A stretch of 29,943 nt of DNA from Natrialbaceae archaeon Tc-Br11_E2g8 (GCA_001564115.1 LKNG01000005.1:1-29943); one strand, 5' to 3'; shown: positions 3,307-20,138, counted from the stretch's first letter. Notes: generated from the letters alone by a model not told the origin. Made by a program: numbers and translations.

Positions 3307-4464
3307 ATGACGGATCCTGTCCGCGCCAACCGAATCCGGCCGACGAGAAGACAGTACCTGCTGGGAGGGGGAGTCGCCTTCACGACGGCACTGGCTGGCT
3401 GTCTCGGTGACGACGAGAGCCAGCCGGGCGACGACGGCAACGGCGGCGACGGCGGCGACGGAGGTGACGGCACCAGCGGAGACGACGACCCGTCGTTCCC
3501 CGACTGGGACCCGAACGATCCACAGTTCCCACAGCTCGTCTCGACGCTCCTCGCGGACGACTTCCACATCGGAACCGAGGAGCTGCTCGGGGAGATGGAA
3601 CCACGCGACGAGCCCCGGTACGGCAACGCGCCGATGGAGCCGCCGGAGGACGAAAGCGAGTGGCTCGACCCCGACACGCTCGATTTCTCGCTGGTTCCCA
3701 CCGAGGATCCGGACGCCTACACCGACGTGCTCGAACCACTGATCGACAACATCGAAGCGGAGACGGGCCGCGACGTCGTCGTCAACCCACTCGACTCCTA
3801 TGCGGCCCAGGTCGAGGCGATGAACGCCGAGCGACTACACGTTGCCGGCTTCGCCACCGGTGCGACGGCGTTCGCGGTGAACATCGCGGGTGCGGTTCCG
3901 TTCGGTATCCAGATCGCCGACGGGCAGTTCGGCTACCGTCTCTGGGTGATCACCCAGGCCGACAGCGACGTCGACTCCCTGGATGATATGGAGGGACGGT
4001 CGGTCACTCACGTCGAGGAGTCCTCGAACTCCGGCCACCAGGCACCCGCTGCCCTGTTCACGGCGGCCGGCGTCGAACCGGGGGAGGCGTACGACGTCTC
4101 GTTTTCGGGCAGCCACGAGAACAGCATCCGGGCGATCGCCGCGGGCGATTACGATGCCGCACCGATCGCGAGTACGGTCCTCCAGCGCCAGGTCGACGCC
4201 GGCCACGTCGATGCCGACGAGATCAAAGTCGTCTGGGCGAGCGATCCGTTTCCGACGACGTCGTTCTGTCATCACTACAAACTCACCCCGGAGCTCCGGG
4301 AGGGGATCGTGGCCGCTCACCTCGAGTACGACTACGCCGGCACCGCACTCGACGAGTACTTCGGACGCGATCGGTTCGCGCCGATCGACTACGCGACCCA
4401 CTGGGACGTCATCCTCGAGATACAGGAACAAAACGGGGTCGACTACCGCACCGAGGAGATCTGA
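3307..4464 (+). CDS. phnD: Phosphonate/phosphite ABC transporter substrate-binding lipoprotein (PhnD family)
   Basis: Tat motif RRQYLLGGGVAFTTALAGC with a lipobox Cys, followed by an acidic Gly/Asp linker. The mature domain matches the PhnD fold signature (…SGHQAPAALF…FSGSHENSIRAIAAGDYDAAPIAS…). It heads a phnC-phnE-phnE operon. Confidence 0.85.
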   Translation: MTDPVRANRIRPTRRQYLLGGGVAFTTALAGCLGDDESQPGDDGNGGDGGDGGDGTSGDDDPSFPDWDPNDPQFPQLVSTLLADDFHIGTEELLGEMEPRDEPRYGNAPMEPPEDESEWLDPDTLDFSLVPTEDPDAYTDVLEPLIDNIEAETGRDVVVNPLDSYAAQVEAMNAERLHVAGFATGATAFAVNIAGAVPFGIQIADGQFGYRLWVITQADSDVDSLDDMEGRSVTHVEESSNSGHQAPAALFTAAGVEPGEAYDVSFSGSHENSIRAIAAGDYDAAPIASTVLQRQVDAGHVDADEIKVVWASDPFPTTSFCHHYKLTPELREGIVAAHLEYDYAGTALDEYFGRDRFAPIDYATHWDVILEIQEQNGVDYRTEEI

Positions 4465-4473
4465 CCTCGGTCG

Positions 4474-5331
4474 ATGCTCTCGATCTCGACCCTCGGAAAG
4501 ACGTACGGAACGGGCGAGCGCGCCCTCGACGACGTCTCGTTCGACGTGGAGGGAAGCCAGGTCGTCGCCGTGATCGGGCCCAGCGGTGCCGGAAAGAGCA
4601 CCCTGATCCGGTGTATCAACCGACTGACCGAGCCCACGGACGGGGAGGTGCGACTCGACGGGACGAACCTGACGTCGCTTTCGAACCGCGAGCTGCGCGC
4701 CGCGCGCCGCGAGATCGGGATGGTCTTCCAGGAGTACGCGCTGGTCGAGCGGCTGACCGTGATGGAGAACGTGCTGTCGGGTCGACTCGGCTACGTGAGC
4801 ACGTGGCGGGGCTTTCGCCGGAAGTTCCCACAGGAGGACGTCCAGCAGGCGTACGCCACCCTCGACCGCGTCGGACTTCGTGGCCACGAGGACGACCGGG
4901 CGGACGAACTCTCCGGCGGACAGCGCCAGCGTGTCGGCATCGCCCGTGCGGTGCTCCAGCGTCCGAAGATCGTGCTCGCCGACGAGCCGACGAGCAGCCT
5001 CGACCCCGAAACCTCACGGGCGGTGATGGAGCTGCTGACCGAGATCGCCAGAGAGGAGTCCATCCCGGTCCTGATAAACATCCACGAGGTGCCACTCGCG
5101 AGAGAACACGCCGATCGGATCATCGGGCTGACCGACGGCAAACTGGTGTTCGACGGCACGCCCGACGAACTCGACGACCGGGCTCTCGACCGGATCTACC
5201 GCTCGGAAGAGCCCGGAGGGAACGCCGACCGGCAGGGGACGCCCGAGCCAGAACCCACCGCGGGAGACGACGTGAACCCGCCGCTCGAACGGGTGAAAGC
5301 CGACGCCCGATCGTCCCCGGAGGGCCGATGA
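4474..5331 (+). CDS. phnC: Phosphonate ABC transporter ATP-binding protein
   Basis: Walker [19 protein letters not shown] and Walker [13 protein letters not shown]. PhnC-typical segments LIRCINRL and INIHEVPLA are present. The stop overlaps the next ATG (ATGA at 5328–5331). Confidence 0.9.
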
Positions 5332-10474: not shown

Positions 10475-10558
10475 GCGAGGGTAGCCAAGTGGCCAACGGC
10501 GGCGGACTCAAGATCCGCTCTCGTAGGAGTTCGTGGGTTCGACTCCCTCCCCTCGCAC
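10475..10558 (+). tRNA. tRNA-Leu, anticodon CAA, with a long variable arm. CCA is not encoded.
   Basis: Acceptor stem GCGAGGG/CCCTCGC with discriminator A. Anticodon stem GCGGA/TCCGC with loop CTCAAGA. Long variable arm. T-loop TTCGACT. The T-stem has one U·U mismatch. Confidence 0.8.
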
Positions 10559-14089: not shown

Positions 14090-14644
14090 GGTCTCCAACC
14101 ACAACAGAGCGACGAGAACATGCTCGAGCAGGATCACCTCGAGTCGAGGGACGTCCGCTCACCACAACTTCGGAGAGTCGAATCCAGCGGCCCACACGTG
14201 TAACTGCTCTATCCTGAAGCTCTCCTGGGCACTCGACACTGACTCACTGAGGCGAATGGGGCCAGAGACTCCCTCTGTCCGAGGGTGGAGTGTATCTCCG
14301 TATCGACTGGGCGGTTAGCACGATGGTCACCCCTATTTTATAAGACAAATATGTATTACCACGCGAGAGTCTACCACGTCTCCCGTTTCGTCTGGTACCA
14401 AAATTTGAAAGTAACGACGTCGTATGGGCCACACAGTATTCACCCGCCGAGATACAACAACATATTATAACTTTGGTCACCGTCTCGGGATGGTGTACAA
14501 TAGTGGCTATCACCCCGTCGCCCTCTTCGTATTTACCGGTTAGCGGTGAAACGTTCAACTGCTCTGTCTGAAACGACGTGGCCGGTTTAAGTGTAAACTC
14601 GGGGTGAAAAGAGCTGCCCCAGACGTGTGGGGCGGGAGAGAACG
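14090..14644. other. Unusually long AT-rich non-coding gap (about 45–50 % GC against about 68 % for the window). No convincing ORF on either strand.
   Basis: Read directly. It contains several TATA-like elements (ttttataa near 14336, atattataa near 14451, tttaagtgtaaac near 14585). The six-frame ORFs here (61 aa on +, 141 aa on -) have non-halophilic composition. Confidence 0.7.
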
Positions 14645-15274
14645 ATGACAGAGAAAAAATATAGCTCACGTCGCTTCGTACTGAAATCGGCCGCGGCGGG
14701 TGTGGCTATCGCTGGAATCGGCGCACCAACAGCAACTGCACAGGGTCGACAAACCGAGACTTTGACGACCGAAGAGGGTTGGATTACTGCGACGGTGAAC
14801 GCAGGACAGCGGACCGTCATCAGCGTCGAACTAGACGAGAGCGTCTACGGCCGCTGGCCCGACAATCCCACGGAGTACGTCATGGAAGCCAACGTGGGTG
14901 TTGTCGTCCCCGATACGGGTGTCTCCGACGACTTCCGAATCGGCTGGGGCGGTGCAGATACGGTTCAACGCGATGGAACGGCGGGTGGCTACATCAGGCG
15001 AAATCCCGGACCGGACGAAGATAGATTCGACACGCTCGAAGAGGACGTGCAGGGGCTGTTTCAGGCGACTGAATCATCTGACCAACAGTCCTACGAGTTC
15101 GTCATCAACTGGCAGACCCCGATCCCCGAAAAGCCAGACCGGATTCAGGAAATTCGAGTGAACGAAGTGTTCGGCCTCGATGGTGGCGGGGGTGTTCAAA
15201 CGGAGGGCATCGATGTCAGTACCGGTTCCTCGGGCGTGTTAGGCCTCGCTCCACCGAGAGGCGGGGGAAACTAA
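14645..15274 (+). CDS. Tat-secreted hypothetical protein, encoded by lower-GC DNA
   Basis: Tat motif SRRFVLKSAAAGVAIAGIG…ATAQG, with no downstream TM or PGF-CTERM segment and a Gly-rich C-terminus. Visibly lower GC than its neighbours. The start is taken as the ATG at 14645 (MTEKKY…). The six-frame ORF begins at the GTG at 14627. Confidence 0.5.
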   Translation: MTEKKYSSRRFVLKSAAAGVAIAGIGAPTATAQGRQTETLTTEEGWITATVNAGQRTVISVELDESVYGRWPDNPTEYVMEANVGVVVPDTGVSDDFRIGWGGADTVQRDGTAGGYIRRNPGPDEDRFDTLEEDVQGLFQATESSDQQSYEFVINWQTPIPEKPDRIQEIRVNEVFGLDGGGGVQTEGIDVSTGSSGVLGLAPPRGGGN

Positions 15275-15373
15275 CGAATCAGTACGTTTTCGACTCTCCG
15301 GCCCTGAAAGGCGAGGAGTCCCGAACGCCTGACGGCCGTTCCGGACCCATATTTCCGGCGGGAGAAAGCCACG

Positions 15374-15383
15374 TTACTTAAGA
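15374..15383 (+). promoter_or_regulatory. TATA-like element (ttacttaaga) centred about 29 bp upstream of the helicase ATG, implying a leaderless transcript
   Basis: Its position and AT-rich composition fit a haloarchaeal promoter at about −27. Confidence 0.4.
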
Positions 15384-15407
15384 GTGTTGCCCTCCAGACT
15401 GTGTACA

Positions 15408-17285
15408 ATGAGTACCACCGAGACGCGGGTGACTCGGCTCTTTGGCGGTCCGGGCAGCGGCAAGACGACGGCACTTCTGGATCACGTAGAGGAGATCCTC
15501 GAGGACGAAGACGTCTCCTTTCGGGACGTGCTGGTCGTCTCGTACACGCGGGCGGCAGCCCAGGAGGTCCGGGAACGGCTCGCCGAACGGCTCGACGAGA
15601 GTCCGCGTGCCCTCCAGGGCAACGTCTGTACGATGCACGCGAAGGCGTACGATCTGCTCGATCTCTCCCGCGGTGACGTCATCGGCGAGAAGGACAAAGA
15701 GGAGTTCTGCGAGGAGTACGGCCTCGAGTTCGAGGACGAGTACTCCGGGGCCGGCCGGCGGACGGCCCGGTCGACGACCATCGGCAACAAGATCATCGCC
15801 ACCAGCCAGTGGCTCCAGCGTACCCGCCGGGAGGTCGCCGACTGGTACGACGTCCCCTTCCAGTGGGACCTAGAGGAGGTCCGACTGCCCCCCGAGATCG
15901 ATCCGAACGCCCAGGAGGGCAACAAGTACACGCCGACCTGGCCGGCGGCCGACGACCGGATCGACGTCCCCGAGGCGATCCGGGCGTGGCGATCCTACAA
16001 GGGCCGGGAGGGAAAGATCGGTTTCGCGGACATGCTAGAGCGCGTCGAGCAGCGCTCGCTCGTCCCGAACGTCGACTACCTCGTGATCGACGAGTTCCAG
16101 GACATCACGCTGTTGCAGTATGCGGTCTACGAGGAGTGGAAACCCCACGTCGACCGCGTCCTGATCGCCGGCGACGACGACCAGGTCGTCTACTCCTGGC
16201 AGGGCGCCGACCCCGCCCTCCTGCTCGAGGAGGAGGTCGACGACGACGTCATCCTGCCGAACTCCTACCGGCTGCCCTCGAACGTCCTCCACGCGGTCAA
16301 CCGGGAGATCCGTCACATCGACGTCCGCCAGGACAAGGACCTAGATCCCCGCAAGGAAGGCGGGACGGTCGAGGGCTACGCGAACAAGTCGATGCTCGAT
16401 CTCGTCCGGATGGTCCGCCGGACGCTCGTCGAGGACGAGGGCACGATCATGCTCCTGTTCCGGGCGCGCTACCAGATGTTCCAGTTCGTCGATGAGTTCA
16501 TCACCGAGGGGATCCCCTTCACCGCGCTGACCGACCAGCGGATGTGGACCGACCGGCTCACCCAGTACGTCCGGGCGGTCGAAGCCGTCGAGGCCGGCGA
16601 GGACCTCGACGGGCTCCAGGCCCGCCGGCTGGCGGACATGCTGATGGACTCGGCCTTTGGCACCGGCGAGCGCGACGAGCTGTTCGACGCGATCGACGAG
16701 CTCCAGGAGGAAGCCGACGTCGGCGACCTCACGGAGCTCACCGTCCCGCTGTCGGTCGTCGAAGAGCACGTCCCGTTCATGCCGGATCCGGCCTCGGCGT
16801 CGGACATGCTCCGGAAGGTCACCAGCTTCCAGAAAAAGAGCGTCAGGGCGTACTTCGCCATCGGCAGCTACCAGGGGATGGACACCGACCGCGTCCGCGT
16901 CGGTACCATCCACTCCGCGAAGGGCCGGGAGGCAGACCACGTCTTCGTCGGCACCGACCTCACCGAGAAGGTCGTCGAGCAGATGGTCGCCACCGTCGAG
17001 GGGACGGGCGCAGACGCCGACGCCACCGACGTCCCCGGCGTCGAGGAGTTCACCAAGACGACGTCGCCGGTGCCGATCCTCACGGACAACGAACGCCGGG
17101 TGTTCTACGTCGGGATGTCCCGGGCCCGCGAACGGCTCGTCCTGCTCGAGAACCTCGTCGACGGCGCGCCGACGCTTCCCGTCGACGTCCTGCTCAACAA
17201 CCGGATGACAGACGCCGACCTCGAGGAGCTGATCGAGATGGCCCAGACCCCCGCCGGCCTCGAGGCCGAACCGGAAGCCCACTGA
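15408..17285 (+). CDS. UvrD/Rep/PcrA-like superfamily-1 DNA helicase, compact, with no N-terminal extension
   Basis: Motif I GGPGSGKTT, Ia VVSYTRAAAQE, II LVIDEFQDIT, III GDDDQVVYSWQGA, IV YRLPSNV, VI VGTIHSAKGREADHVFV, and the C-terminal RRVFYVGMSRARERL. Walker A begins at residue 13, so the usual Q-motif region is absent. Confidence 0.85.
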   Translation: MSTTETRVTRLFGGPGSGKTTALLDHVEEILEDEDVSFRDVLVVSYTRAAAQEVRERLAERLDESPRALQGNVCTMHAKAYDLLDLSRGDVIGEKDKEEFCEEYGLEFEDEYSGAGRRTARSTTIGNKIIATSQWLQRTRREVADWYDVPFQWDLEEVRLPPEIDPNAQEGNKYTPTWPAADDRIDVPEAIRAWRSYKGREGKIGFADMLERVEQRSLVPNVDYLVIDEFQDITLLQYAVYEEWKPHVDRVLIAGDDDQVVYSWQGADPALLLEEEVDDDVILPNSYRLPSNVLHAVNREIRHIDVRQDKDLDPRKEGGTVEGYANKSMLDLVRMVRRTLVEDEGTIMLLFRARYQMFQFVDEFITEGIPFTALTDQRMWTDRLTQYVRAVEAVEAGEDLDGLQARRLADMLMDSAFGTGERDELFDAIDELQEEADVGDLTELTVPLSVVEEHVPFMPDPASASDMLRKVTSFQKKSVRAYFAIGSYQGMDTDRVRVGTIHSAKGREADHVFVGTDLTEKVVEQMVATVEGTGADADATDVPGVEEFTKTTSPVPILTDNERRVFYVGMSRARERLVLLENLVDGAPTLPVDVLLNNRMTDADLEELIEMAQTPAGLEAEPEAH

Positions 17286-17304
17286 CCCCCGACGGGCCGA
17301 ACGG

Positions 17305-18576
17305 ATGTCCCCCTCAGGGCCGACCGACGCCGGGAGTCGCGACCGATCGATCGACGAAACCCACGACCGATCGACGGACGTCGAGGGTCGCGACCGACTG
17401 GTCGGTGCCGAGATTCACGGCCGGCTGCTCGACGCCCTCGGCGGGGACGACGCCGCGGCCCTGGTCCACGCCGGCCATCCCCGGGAGCCGACGCTCCGGT
17501 ACCTGCTCGGGGCCGCCGACCGCCGGCCGGCCGGCGAGGTGGGGGTCGTCCGTGCGGTCGCCGTAGACGAGGAGGGGATCCTCGCGTTCGCGGCCGACGG
17601 CGACGACCACCCCGCGACGCGGCTGGCGGACGCCCTGCGGGAACGCGGCCGGACGGGGACGCTCCTCGCACCGCCGGACATCCCCCACGACGCGGCGCTG
17701 TACCTCGAGCGGGCGGGGTTCGAGCTGGCCTCGACCGATCTCCTCGATCGGCTCCGTGCGTCGAAGAGCCCCGCCGAGGTGCGACGAATCGAGCGCTCCG
17801 CGGCCGCGGCGACCGCGGGGTTGCGCCGGGCAGCGTCGATCCTCGCCGACGCCGCGAGCGACGGGGTCTCCGACGACGCCACGGGCGACGGGGTCTCCGA
17901 CGACGCCGCGGGCGACGGAAGCTCCGCCGGCGCCACGGCCCACGACGGGACGCTCGTCGTCGACGGCGAGCCGCTGGGCCGCGAGGGGTTCCGTCGCCGG
18001 ATCGACGCCGCGATCGTCGACGCCGGGGGGTTTCCCGCCGGACACACCGTCGTGGGGGTCGGTCGGACGCCGACCTCCGACGCGTCGGAGACGATCGGGG
18101 AGGGGGCGACGGCCGGGGGCGGAGCGGACGTCCTTCCGGTCGGCGAGTCGATCGTCGTCTCGGTCGCTCCCCGCGGGCCGGAGGGCTACCACGCCCCGAT
18201 GAGCCGGACGTTCGTCGTCGACGGTGACGGGGGCGAGCGACGCCGGGCACACGTCGCGGCGACGGCGGCGCTACGATCGGCCGAGGCGTTGCTCGAGAGC
18301 GGCGAGGATCGGGCCGGGGTCGTCGAGGCCGACCTCGCGGCGGAGGTCGCTGCCTTCGGCTTCGAGGCGGGCGTCGAGAGTAGCGTCCGTGGCGTCGGGC
18401 TCGAACCGACCGAACGGCCCCTGGCGGGCGGAACGATTCCGGACGGCGCCGTCCTCGCGCTCGAGGCCGAGACGATCGAGCCGGCGGTCCGACTCGCCGA
18501 TCTCCTCGTCGTCGAGGGCGGGGCCGTCCGCCGGCTCGAGGCTCCCTCGCGGTCGCTGGTGCCCTCGAGAGAGTAA
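17305..18576 (+). CDS. M24-family (Xaa-Pro aminopeptidase/creatinase) homologue, apparently catalytically inactive
   Basis: A creatinase-type N-domain followed by a pita-bread domain (LRASKSPAEVRRIER…; GESIVVSVAPRGPEGYHAPMSRTFVV; GVGLEPTERP; LALEAETIEPA; LLVVEGG). A by-eye alignment puts Ser and Pro where the two metal-binding Asp should be, and Thr where the His should be. The two Glu are retained. The gene starts 19 bp after the helicase stop on the same strand. It contains a 27-bp tandem repeat encoding (DGVSDDATG)x2. Confidence 0.65.
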   Translation: MSPSGPTDAGSRDRSIDETHDRSTDVEGRDRLVGAEIHGRLLDALGGDDAAALVHAGHPREPTLRYLLGAADRRPAGEVGVVRAVAVDEEGILAFAADGDDHPATRLADALRERGRTGTLLAPPDIPHDAALYLERAGFELASTDLLDRLRASKSPAEVRRIERSAAAATAGLRRAASILADAASDGVSDDATGDGVSDDAAGDGSSAGATAHDGTLVVDGEPLGREGFRRRIDAAIVDAGGFPAGHTVVGVGRTPTSDASETIGEGATAGGGADVLPVGESIVVSVAPRGPEGYHAPMSRTFVVDGDGGERRRAHVAATAALRSAEALLESGEDRAGVVEADLAAEVAAFGFEAGVESSVRGVGLEPTERPLAGGTIPDGAVLALEAETIEPAVRLADLLVVEGGAVRRLEAPSRSLVPSRE

Positions 18577-18581
18577 CGCGA

Positions 18582-20138
18582 TCAGCCGACGATCGCGATC
18601 GGAACGGGCATGAAACAGAGGACGCCGAGGACGAAGGTGACGACGCCGAGCAGGAGCCGTCCGCGGCCGAGTCGGCCGTCGTCGACCGGCCTGGCCGGCC
18701 CCGCGGCCGCGATCAGGGCCGCGAACAGTCCCCAGAACACCCAGATGAAAACCGAGTTGCCGCTGTAGTCGCCGACGTAGTAGAGGTAGCCGGCGAGTGC
18801 GAACAGCACGCCGGGGACCAGCGCGCCGATCGTCTCCTGGAGCTCCCCGATCATCGCCCGGAGGATGTGGCCACCGTCGAGCTGGCCGACCGGGATCAGG
18901 TTGAGGAAGGTGACGAACATCCCCACCCAGCCGCCGATGACGACCGGGTTTACCGCCGTCGTCGGATCCTCGCGGTACAGCGGCTGATCGACGGCCGTCG
19001 CGAGCAACTCGAGCAAGGGCGGGTAGCCGAGCTGGATGACGACGCCCGACTCCTCGACGACCTCCTGGGGGGCGTTGACCGGCGGCAGGTGGAGCCCGAC
19101 GACGGTGACGGCGACGGTCGCGACCAGCCCCGCCAGCGGTCCGGCGACGCCGATGTCGAAAAGCGCCCGCCGGTCGGGCATCCGCCCTTTCATCTTGATC
19201 ACTGCGCCCATCGTTCCGATCAGCGTCGGCACCGGCAGGAAGTACGGCAACGAGGCGTTCACGCGGTGATACCTGCTCAGGACGTAGTGGCCCATCTCGT
19301 GGACGCCGAGGACGAGCAAGATTGCGACCGAGAACGGCCAGGCCCGCCAGATCTCGGTCGGCTCCGCGAACGGGTCGATGTAGTACCACTGGGCGCCGGC
19401 GAACAGCGTCGAGAGCACCGTCGCGACGAACAGGACGACGTTCGTCCAGGGAACGCCGTCGATCCCGACGTCGACGGGCTCTGCGAGGAGGACGTACCGG
19501 TGATCGTCCGCCATCGGCGACGCCGCCTGCCCACGCGGTTCCGTCGCGTCGTCGACCCGCGACGCCGCGTCGTCGATCCGTGGCGTCGCGTCGTTGACCC
19601 GCGATGTCGTGTCGTCGACACGCGGCGTCGTACGCTCTTCGCCCACCGACCCGTCCTCACGTGCCGACCGCGTACCGTCCTCACGCACCGACCGCGTACC
19701 GTCCTCACGCGTCGACCGCGTACTCCCTTCAGCCACCGATCCCGTACCGTCCCTCGGGGTCGTCCCCTCGTCGCCCGTCGCCGACCGCCCGCCGGGCACC
19801 GCGTCCGCGGTCGTGAGGCGGACCTCGTAGCCCGCTTCCCGGAACACCGGCCAGAGCTCGCGAACCAGCGGCTCCGGGGGGACGAGCGGGCGACCGAAGT
19901 ACCGAAGCGTCGAGCCGTCACGGTCGACGGCGCTCACCCGGAACACCGGTTCGATCGCCTCGAGCGGGGGGCCGGCCTCGGCGGCGTCCGACCTGGCCAT
20001 CGCTACGACGTAGCGGTCGGCGGCATAAAACGGCTGTCGGTCGCGGAAGCCGGCCGTCGAGCCGGCAACGACGACCGCGGACGGTCCAGCGGGAACCACG
20101 ACCGGGCCGTTGGAACGCGGGGGGTCTGCCGTTGGCAC
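18582..20138 (-). CDS. M50-family site-2 protease (S2P) with an N-terminal soluble domain and a repeat-rich linker
   Basis: HExxH motif HEMGHYV, a second metal-ligand motif LDGGH, and multiple TM helices. The N-terminal roughly 120 aa are non-membrane and are followed by two tandem 8-aa repeat tracts. An alternative start is the ATG at 20000 (MARSD…). Confidence 0.75.
   Translation of the reverse strand: MPTADPPRSNGPVVVPAGPSAVVVAGSTAGFRDRQPFYAADRYVVAMARSDAAEAGPPLEAIEPVFRVSAVDRDGSTLRYFGRPLVPPEPLVRELWPVFREAGYEVRLTTADAVPGGRSATGDEGTTPRDGTGSVAEGSTRSTREDGTRSVREDGTRSAREDGSVGEERTTPRVDDTTSRVNDATPRIDDAASRVDDATEPRGQAASPMADDHRYVLLAEPVDVGIDGVPWTNVVLFVATVLSTLFAGAQWYYIDPFAEPTEIWRAWPFSVAILLVLGVHEMGHYVLSRYHRVNASLPYFLPVPTLIGTMGAVIKMKGRMPDRRALFDIGVAGPLAGLVATVAVTVVGLHLPPVNAPQEVVEESGVVIQLGYPPLLELLATAVDQPLYREDPTTAVNPVVIGGWVGMFVTFLNLIPVGQLDGGHILRAMIGELQETIGALVPGVLFALAGYLYYVGDYSGNSVFIWVFWGLFAALIAAAGPARPVDDGRLGRGRLLLGVVTFVLGVLCFMPVPIAIVG

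Follow-up and report, generated by a model that had tools for sequence, protein, structure and literature searches.

A conserved gene pair of Halobacteria encoding a compact UvrD-like helicase and a prolidase-type M24-like protein with a degenerate metal site

Superfamily 1A (SF1A) motors such as UvrD, PcrA, and Rep are typically weak helicases alone and generally need a partner protein or self-association for efficient unwinding. Escherichia coli UvrD has a C-terminal extension of ~100 aa past motif VI, which is a partner-binding region. Haloferax volcanii lacking the UvrD-like helicase HVO_0415 is not sensitive to ultraviolet (UV) light or mitomycin C (MMC), in contrast to uvrA, uvrB, and uvrC mutants (PMC7776575), and deletion of uvrD in Halobacterium salinarum gives no phenotype in growth, tolerance to N-methyl-N'-nitro-N-nitrosoguanidine (MNNG) or mutation rate (PMC2816208). 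Moreover, HVO_0415 was co-purified with Cas1 alongside UvrA and UvrB (PMC9051519). Ebp1 is an M24-fold pseudo-peptidase that acts as a binding platform in nucleic-acid-related machinery, and prokaryotic M24 pseudo-peptidases are outside the coverage of the current review of pseudo-peptidases (PMC11266112). Here, we describe a gene pair from Natrialbaceae archaeon Tc-Br11_E2g8 that links a UvrD-like helicase to an M24-like protein. The window, i.e., the whole stretch of 29,943 nucleotides that was analysed (GCA_001564115.1 LKNG01000005.1:1-29943), is a segment of a haloarchaeal chromosome with a high GC content (~68%), and the pair is arranged in it as follows:

15369-15384, + strand: BRE/TATA-like (transcription factor B recognition element and TATA box) element CCACGTTACTTAAGAG, ~32 nt 5' of the helicase ATG, a leaderless-type arrangement
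15408-17285, + strand: UvrD-like helicase gene, 625 aa, identified by Pfam/NCBIfam and PDB matches, 78-100% identical homologs and the Haloferax loci
17286-17304, + strand: intergenic spacer of 19 nt, GC-rich; in most relatives a 4-nt overlap of the ATGA type instead
17305-18576, + strand: M24-like gene (predicted prolidase-type M24B pseudo-peptidase), 423 aa, with the ATG at 17305 and the stop at 18576

The helicase gene and the M24-like gene are a vertically inherited core operon of two genes that is present throughout the class Halobacteria. When the M24-like alignment was searched against one genome per species, 176 relatives were obtained, and in all of the best 80 loci examined out of these 176 an ortholog of the helicase (68-92% identical) lies directly 5' on the same strand. 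The genera with the pair include many Natrialbaceae, Haloarchaeobius, Halanaeroarchaeum, Natronoarchaeum, Halorubrum, and Salarchaeum, and furthermore Halobellus, Halopenitus, Halalkalicoccus, and Halorubellus, whereas the remaining neighbours in the window (the M50 protease, DUF63, and others) are kept in the closest relative only. In most loci the stop of the helicase gene and the start of the M24-like gene overlap by 4 nt, and elsewhere both are separated by 0-19 nt. Neither a promoter- nor a terminator-like signal was found in the spacer 17286-17304. The frequent 4-nt overlap together with the signal-free spacer is characteristic of a bicistronic operon with translational coupling. The G+C content at third codon positions (GC3) of the helicase gene (0.92) and of the M24-like gene (0.89) is native. 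A promoter-like element, CCACGTnACTTATnGG, keeps the same spacing to the helicase in loci of many genera. The BRE/TATA-like element of the window is the putative promoter of the pair, and its spacing is the one expected of leaderless transcripts in haloarchaea.

In H. larsenii and H. volcanii a gene for a zinc-finger micro-protein of the HVO_0416 family is followed by the helicase gene and then by the M24 gene. From this shared gene order, the helicase of the window is the ortholog of HVO_0415 (“repair helicase UvrD”), to which it is 73-75% identical, and the M24-like partner in H. volcanii is presumably HVO_0414. The order of helicase and M24-like gene is the same in both organisms and the partner is degenerate in both, with S/A/G/E/R at the five ligand positions in H. 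volcanii. However, the junction measures 6 nt in H. volcanii vs. 19 nt in the window, and the window has a low-GC insert in place of the HVO_0416-type gene. The HVO_0416 transcript is separate, monocistronic, and leaderless (PMC6490895), which agrees with a promoter-like element directly 5' of the helicase.

The linkage was also followed from the helicase side, with the helicase alignment against metagenome contigs, which gave 25 orthologous loci, 19 of them with sufficient downstream sequence. The M24-like partner is present at 13 of these 19 loci (11 full-length, 2 truncated) and absent at the other 6. The truncated genes, found in two metagenomic haloarchaeal lineages (L084:5833-6492 and L106:5833-6477), encode 214-219 aa with the C-terminal pita-bread domain only, and the 4-nt overlap with the helicase stop is kept. 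In a metagenome-assembled genome of Haloquadratum, the M20, M32, HVO_0416, helicase, and DUF7533 genes are all kept and the M24 gene is cleanly deleted. The M24-like gene is therefore frequent and tightly linked, yet dispensable. Among 55 distant loci of compact helicases from gut and other metagenomes none has an M24-like neighbour, and thus the pairing is confined to the haloarchaeal orthogroup.

The M24-like protein is recognized by Pfam Peptidase_M24 (PF00557) with 31.2 bits (gathering score 23). A single-sequence phmmer search against the PDB found no M24 chain and one spurious match at 0.13. A profile of 40 family members matches the prolidase 1PV9 of P. furiosus with 5.5e-23, and all sequence-profile matches of the family are prolidases. 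The metal ligands D209/D220/H284/E313/E327 of 1PV9 align to S286/P298/R362/E370/E387, so that two of five ligands, both Glu, are kept and both Asp as well as the His are replaced; the His of the HExP motif aligns to T369. Because just these two ligands are left, the protein of the window is predicted to be unable to assemble the dinuclear metal centre of M24 peptidases, and judged by their ligand residues neither this protein nor its H. volcanii counterpart can be a canonical metallopeptidase. The relevant positions and motifs are:

18160-18198, + strand: lost Asp ligand positions S286 (18160-18162) and P298 (18196-18198), from the alignment to 1PV9
18388-18414, + strand: R362 (18388-18390, lost His ligand), T369 (lost His of HExP), and the retained E370 (18412-18414), followed by Arg (TERP)
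18463-18465, + strand: fifth ligand position, retained as E387; relatives have E or D here
17680-17709, + strand: family-specific invariant motif IPHDAALYLE, aa 126-135, at the end of the N-domain, in ligand-intact and degenerate members
18205-18246, + strand: conserved motif RTFVVDGDGGERRR, aa 301-314, with R301, T302, G309, G310, R313, and R314 invariant in the family
17847-17938, + strand: 27-nt tandem repeat of 3.4 copies, encoding the acidic GDGVSDDA insert, aa 181-212

An AlphaFold2 (AF2) model built with the family alignment has a mean predicted local distance difference test score (pLDDT) of 85 and a predicted template modelling score (pTM) of 0.83 and shows a complete two-domain prolidase fold. 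Its top Foldseek matches are small prokaryotic prolidases (E ~1e-16, TM-score ~0.7, over both domains). Creatinase, EutD/DoeA, and DddP follow at lower ranks, the N-terminal domain of Spt16 (Spt16-NTD) takes ranks 41 and 49, and the top 50 do not include Ebp1. With the small prolidases of P. furiosus (1PV9), P. horikoshii (1WY2), and D. radiodurans (5GIU) the protein shares the two-domain architecture and the pita-bread fold, and some members of the M24-like family still carry D/D/H/E/E. It differs from these prolidases in the replacement of three of five ligands and of the His of HExP, in the motifs IPHDAALYLE and DGDGGxxRR, in the acidic repeat insert, and in its obligatory linkage to a helicase gene. 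The GDGVSDDA insert is absent from relatives, forms a low-confidence loop in the model and is predicted to be disordered. Like Spt16-NTD of FACT and Ebp1 (PA2G4), the protein is an M24 fold that has lost metal ligands, and the structural match to Spt16-NTD is significant. However, its origin from a prokaryotic prolidase is an independent one and it resembles Spt16 or Ebp1 no more than it resembles any other M24B member; moreover, Ebp1 is of the M24A (methionine aminopeptidase) type, whereas the protein of the window is M24B and acidic overall.

The family as a whole documents how the metal site was lost. D/D/H/E/E is intact in 18 of 105 members, and the other 87 have kept one to three ligands, with diverse replacements. 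The first Glu (position of E370) is retained in 86 of these 87 degenerate members. An Arg occupies the position of the HExP His in 46/87 degenerate vs. 1/18 intact members, and an Arg directly follows the first Glu (E+1) in 57/87 vs. 2/18. Within Halorubrum, H. alkaliphilum and H. kocurii are ligand-intact and H. cibi is degenerate; similarly, Halogeometricum and Haloprofundus are intact and Haloferax, Halogranum, and Halobellus degenerate, all five of which we take to belong to the same family. On a tree of the helicases from 99 loci, Fitch parsimony requires at least four changes between the intact and the degenerate state and at least two losses of the gene. Ligand-intact and degenerate members alike keep three motifs with little or no variation, namely IPHDAALYLE, RTFVVDxxGGWxRR, and AExxAxGF. 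Ratios of nonsynonymous to synonymous substitutions (dN/dS, Nei-Gojobori, 20 closely related pairs) are 0.02-0.11 for the helicase vs. 0.13-0.48 for the M24-like gene at dS values of up to 0.9, and a pair in which both M24-like proteins are ligand-intact has 0.32. Selection therefore maintains the partner, although 5-10 times more loosely than the helicase. The helicase gene ranks among the best-conserved ones of the Halobacteria, its orthologs sharing 70-90% identity throughout the class, and is under very strong purifying selection. Since the catalytic centre was lost repeatedly while protein and motifs were kept, these comparisons suggest that selection on the M24-like protein preserves something other than peptidase chemistry.

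The helicase itself belongs to the UvrD-like superfamily 1 (SF1) helicases. It matches Pfam UvrD-helicase (PF00580; 5.5e-28, 98.8 bits, gathering score 23) from profile position 17 of 271 onwards and UvrD_C (PF13361; 45.5 bits, gathering score 25.6) as well as AAA_19, and its best matches among solved structures are E. coli UvrD, D. radiodurans UvrD, PcrA, and Rep. All SF1 motifs from I to VI, including Ia, could be located and are invariant across the orthogroup:

15444-15470, + strand: Walker A/motif I GGPGSGKTT, aa 13-21, without a Q-motif segment 5' of it
helicase aa 43-58: motif Ia
16080-16109, + strand: motif II/Walker B LVIDEFQDIT, aa 225-234 (DEFQD aa 228-232)
helicase aa 255-267: motif III GDDDQ..WQGA
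helicase aa 285-288: motif IV NSYR
16899-17144, + strand: motifs V VGTIHSAKGREADHVFV (TIHSAKGRE, aa 500-508) and VI ERRVFYVGMSRARERLVL (YVGMSRA, aa 567-573)

Both ends of the protein are compact. Twelve residues separate the start from Walker A. The part of the helicase aligned to residue 27 of E. coli UvrD has only 10 residues in front of it, so that the segment of the Q motif has no counterpart in the helicase. A mis-called start was considered as the cause and ruled out: the open reading frame (ORF) is open from the GTG at 15384, uses the conserved ATG at 15408 and ends with the stop at 17283-17285, and in 77 related loci the helicase ATG is found 11-13 (rarely 15-19) residues 5' of GGPGSGKTT, and an in-frame stop often lies three codons before it. 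At the other end 46 residues follow motif VI, which aligns to UvrD 593-612, so that the long C-terminal extension is absent. In an exhaustive search of 1.84 billion representatives the haloarchaeal helicase family falls into one 50% cluster, and the nearest relatives beyond it are 28-38% identical and 480-650 aa long. Of the 115 nearest full-length 50% representatives in which Walker A can be recognised, 110 have it inside the first 20 residues. Lack of the Q motif is therefore common to a broad clade of compact SF1 helicases, whose few named members are the helicase of a haloarchaeal plasmid and a protein from Dehalococcoidia. The viral helicase family phrog_1967 scores 226 bits against the helicase, compared to ~100 bits for the bacterial UvrD/PcrA/Rep models, and phage relatives with 23-32% identity are located beside primase genes in replication modules. 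An AF2 model of the helicase from 20 sequences (at least 73% identical) was poor (pLDDT 53, pTM 0.39) and was not used.

A preliminary description of the window, made by a model from the sequence alone, had already proposed a helicase with all SF1 motifs that starts near Walker A and lacks the Q motif, which the alignments and the 77 related loci bear out. It had also placed a full-length M24 pita-bread protein 19 bp downstream on the same strand, in agreement with the spacer 17286-17304, the Pfam match and the two-domain prolidase fold of the AF2 model. The call of a pseudo-peptidase with two Asp and the His replaced and both Glu kept survived the profile alignment to 1PV9, in which the canonical D/D/H/E/E ligands are not intact, and the proposed co-directional cassette is found again in the synteny from the M24 side (80/80, best 80 of 176) and from the helicase side (13/19). 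Its parallel to Spt16 and Ebp1 holds for an M24 fold with loss of ligands, but not for a specific relatedness, as the top 40 structural matches are prokaryotic and Spt16-NTD comes at rank 41.

The surroundings of the pair differ between the lineages. A gene for a CPxCG zinc-finger micro-protein of the HVO_0416 type (58-63 aa) precedes the helicase gene in the same orientation in 74/82 loci, and a second CxxC protein gene (52 aa, DUF7563) often lies between it and the helicase; neither of the two genes is present in the window. This conserved linkage of zinc-finger micro-protein genes to the helicase may matter functionally. Examples come from the loci L003-L081 and L163-L166:

L019:4479-4655 and 4812-4970: zinc-finger micro-protein genes
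L166:3441-3632 and 3714-3872: zinc-finger micro-protein genes

In Haloferacaceae (L081, L163-L166) the order is M20 peptidase, M32 carboxypeptidase, HVO_0416, helicase, M24-like gene, and DUF7533, the M24-like gene being absent from the Haloquadratum locus L164; the helicase is thus surrounded by three genes of peptidase families. In the window a low-GC segment (14100-15300, 44-63% GC vs. ~68% elsewhere) lies upstream of the helicase gene. It is absent from related loci, where the zinc-finger micro-protein gene or genes hold this place in 74/82 cases, and it contains one ORF:

14627-15274, + strand: ORF of 215 aa with the twin-arginine (Tat) signal peptide SRRFVLKSAAAG; GC3 0.63 vs. ~0.9 in the neighbours

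This ORF has no match in Pfam, NCBIfam, PHROGs, or PADLOC, and a repeat search around the segment gave short matches at chance level only and no clear insertion boundaries. The segment looks like a foreign, local insertion outside the helicase/M24 module. On the other side, a gene for an M50 site-2-protease homolog (18582-20138, - strand) adjoins the M24-like gene; its N-terminal region (19517-19752 of the window) contains tandem repeats of 21/42 nt and, as a second set, of 24/48 nt, which encode the peptide units TPRVDD.. and REDGTRS... The single RNA gene detected in the window is tRNA-Leu (CAA) at 10475-10558; scans with Rfam and for tRNAs gave none in or near the helicase/M24 module.

Taken as a whole, the explanation towards which we lean is a core operon with a housekeeping role, whose M24-like protein assists the helicase without catalysis of its own. 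The protein would have a selected function other than peptide hydrolysis, coupled to the co-translated helicase, and could be a binding platform or regulator that, e.g., recruits, dimerises, or activates the SF1A motor. Its help would be useful but dispensable, and the module would serve a housekeeping DNA or RNA transaction outside of canonical nucleotide-excision repair (NER) or mismatch repair (MMR) and not anti-virus defence. We infer this helper role from gene linkage and evolution, and a co-translated platform is a reasonable guess because the helicase has neither the Q segment nor the long C-terminal partner region. Several observations speak against a helper. The partner is lost or truncated at ~8/19 (~40%) of the sampled metagenome loci, and therefore the helicase functions without it. 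A fully intact M24 catalytic site persists in some lineages, where the ancestral and maybe the current role may simply be prolidase activity, and the M20 and M32 peptidase genes near the pair in Haloferacaceae hint at an origin of the M24 gene in peptide catabolism. The sequences counted above are phylogenetically related, so that the counts of Arg gains overstate the independent events. The net charge of the M24-like proteins (-0.06 to -0.08 per residue) is the acidity typical of haloarchaeal proteins, and this ordinary composition gives no sign of a nucleic-acid-binding surface. Finally, the product of the gene 3' of HVO_0415 is absent from the list of proteins co-purified with Cas1 (PMC9051519 and its supplement), which is weak evidence against a tight helicase/M24 complex.

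The more specific version of the helper is tentative: the degenerate prolidase might truly belong to the haloarchaeal “UvrD”, as a subunit or regulator translated together with it, and would then be the first M24 pseudo-peptidase of a prokaryote recruited as a platform for a nucleic-acid motor. Its remodelled pocket, with Arg residues flanking the retained Glu, would accommodate a phosphate-bearing ligand or the tail of a protein and thereby control the SF1A helicase, and the complex would carry out the strongly selected function of the helicase. Rather doubtful is the opposite assumption, namely that an ex-prolidase has been located downstream of the helicase since the ancestor of the Halobacteria as a functionally unrelated, hitch-hiking relic, which decays slowly, has at most a residual role independent of the helicase and stays put through translational coupling and the lack of pressure to separate. 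Ligand erosion in many differing patterns, C-domain-only forms and outright losses, a dN/dS 5-10 times the helicase value, the nearby M20 and M32 genes in Haloferacaceae and the partner missing from the Cas1/UvrD pull-down list would all go along with such a decay. A relic fits less well with a dN/dS clearly below 1 (0.13-0.48 at dS up to 0.9), with an ORF length and fold that are kept in 90+ genomes, with invariant motifs common to intact and degenerate members, with an Arg that recurs beside the always-kept Glu, and with an adjacency that persists while all other neighbours change. That the protein became a metal-independent enzyme, catalysing a creatinase-like reaction via the retained Glu and the new Arg, is improbable. 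The structural matches include creatinase and the ectoine hydrolase EutD/DoeA, the E370 position is kept in 86/87 with Arg recurrently gained alongside, and the gene is under purifying selection, but the pocket of the degenerate members is hypervariable (E/A/S/R/T at the first Asp, G/R/A/H at the second, S/H/A/T/G/Y at the His) and therefore unlike a conserved new active site; truncated forms without the N-domain exist and a metabolic gene context is missing.

Two other explanations leave the M24-like protein aside or give the pair a different task. An ordinary bacterial-type UvrD for strand removal in NER/MMR, next to which the M24-like gene would be irrelevant, is suggested by the annotation as uvrD or repair helicase in model haloarchaea, the co-purification with Cas1, UvrA, and UvrB (PMC9051519), and the UvrD/Rep domains with motifs I-VI that the helicase shares with UvrD, PcrA, and Rep. 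Against the NCBIfam equivalogs, however, it scores 101 bits for pcrA (cut-off 911), 89.8 for uvrD (1144) and 80.3 for rep (951), i.e., 80-101 bits and far below the cut-offs of 911-1168. It is Q-less and has just 46 aa past motif VI, its nearest relatives are compact Walker-A-first helicases of ~30% identity, including those of plasmids and phages, and the deletions in two haloarchaeal species have no UV, MMC, MNNG, or mutator phenotype (PMC7776575, PMC2816208). Strictly speaking, the haloarchaeal helicase is, by these scores, no ortholog of bacterial UvrD, and we regard this explanation as very improbable. The doubt about NER in the preliminary description was thus justified, since the ortholog HVO_0415 has no NER phenotype (PMC7776575). 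Its preference for a non-housekeeping, defence-type nucleic-acid module tied to a variable low-GC island has to be given up and is hardly credible: the island at 14100-15300 is real and immediately upstream of the helicase, but it is absent from related loci and lies outside the conserved module. The helicase resembles GajB of the Gabija system, a UvrD-like helicase of similar size, with 1e-30 to 1e-9 against the PADLOC GajB models and 1e-6 against GajB chains in the PDB, and phrog_1967 reaches 226 bits. Its GajB scores are, however, no better than generic PcrA/UvrD scores, the phage relatives are just 23-32% identical, and no gene for GajA, the OLD-family ATPase-nuclease, is found beside the helicase, whose neighbours are the Tat-signal ORF and the M24-like protein, the latter without any PADLOC or PHROG match. 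The helicase also lacks the patchy, mobile distribution typical of defence genes, as it forms a single, vertically inherited core orthogroup of 70-90% identity with a dN/dS of 0.02-0.1, and GC3 is native in both genes. The defence reading was rejected on these grounds, i.e., class-wide conservation, native GC3, generic similarity to GajB, and the lack of GajA.

The components of the pair, an SF1A UvrD-like helicase and an M24-fold pseudo-enzyme, are of known kinds. A search of the available literature gave no mention of HVO_0414, nothing relevant on a haloarchaeal UvrD with an Xaa-Pro peptidase, and no description of the pair, which the preliminary description likewise had not recognised as a described system; the class-wide coupling, the series from intact to lost partners, and the place of the haloarchaeal “UvrD” in a Q-less compact clade were also not found in the literature. 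Few proteins of the class are as conserved as the haloarchaeal “UvrD”, yet its deletion gives no phenotype in the published NER/MMR assays of two species, and a coupled, class-wide partner is a concrete new handle on its real job. Because H. volcanii has this arrangement with a ligand-degenerate M24-like protein and Halogeometricum has it with an intact version, the hypothesis can be tested directly by genetics and biochemistry, and in a genetic system that is already established. The M24-like family is moreover a natural series from enzyme to pseudo-enzyme, with intact, eroded, truncated, and lost members. If the M24-like protein is indeed a subunit of the helicase, it would be a convergent prokaryotic counterpart of Spt16-NTD and Ebp1.

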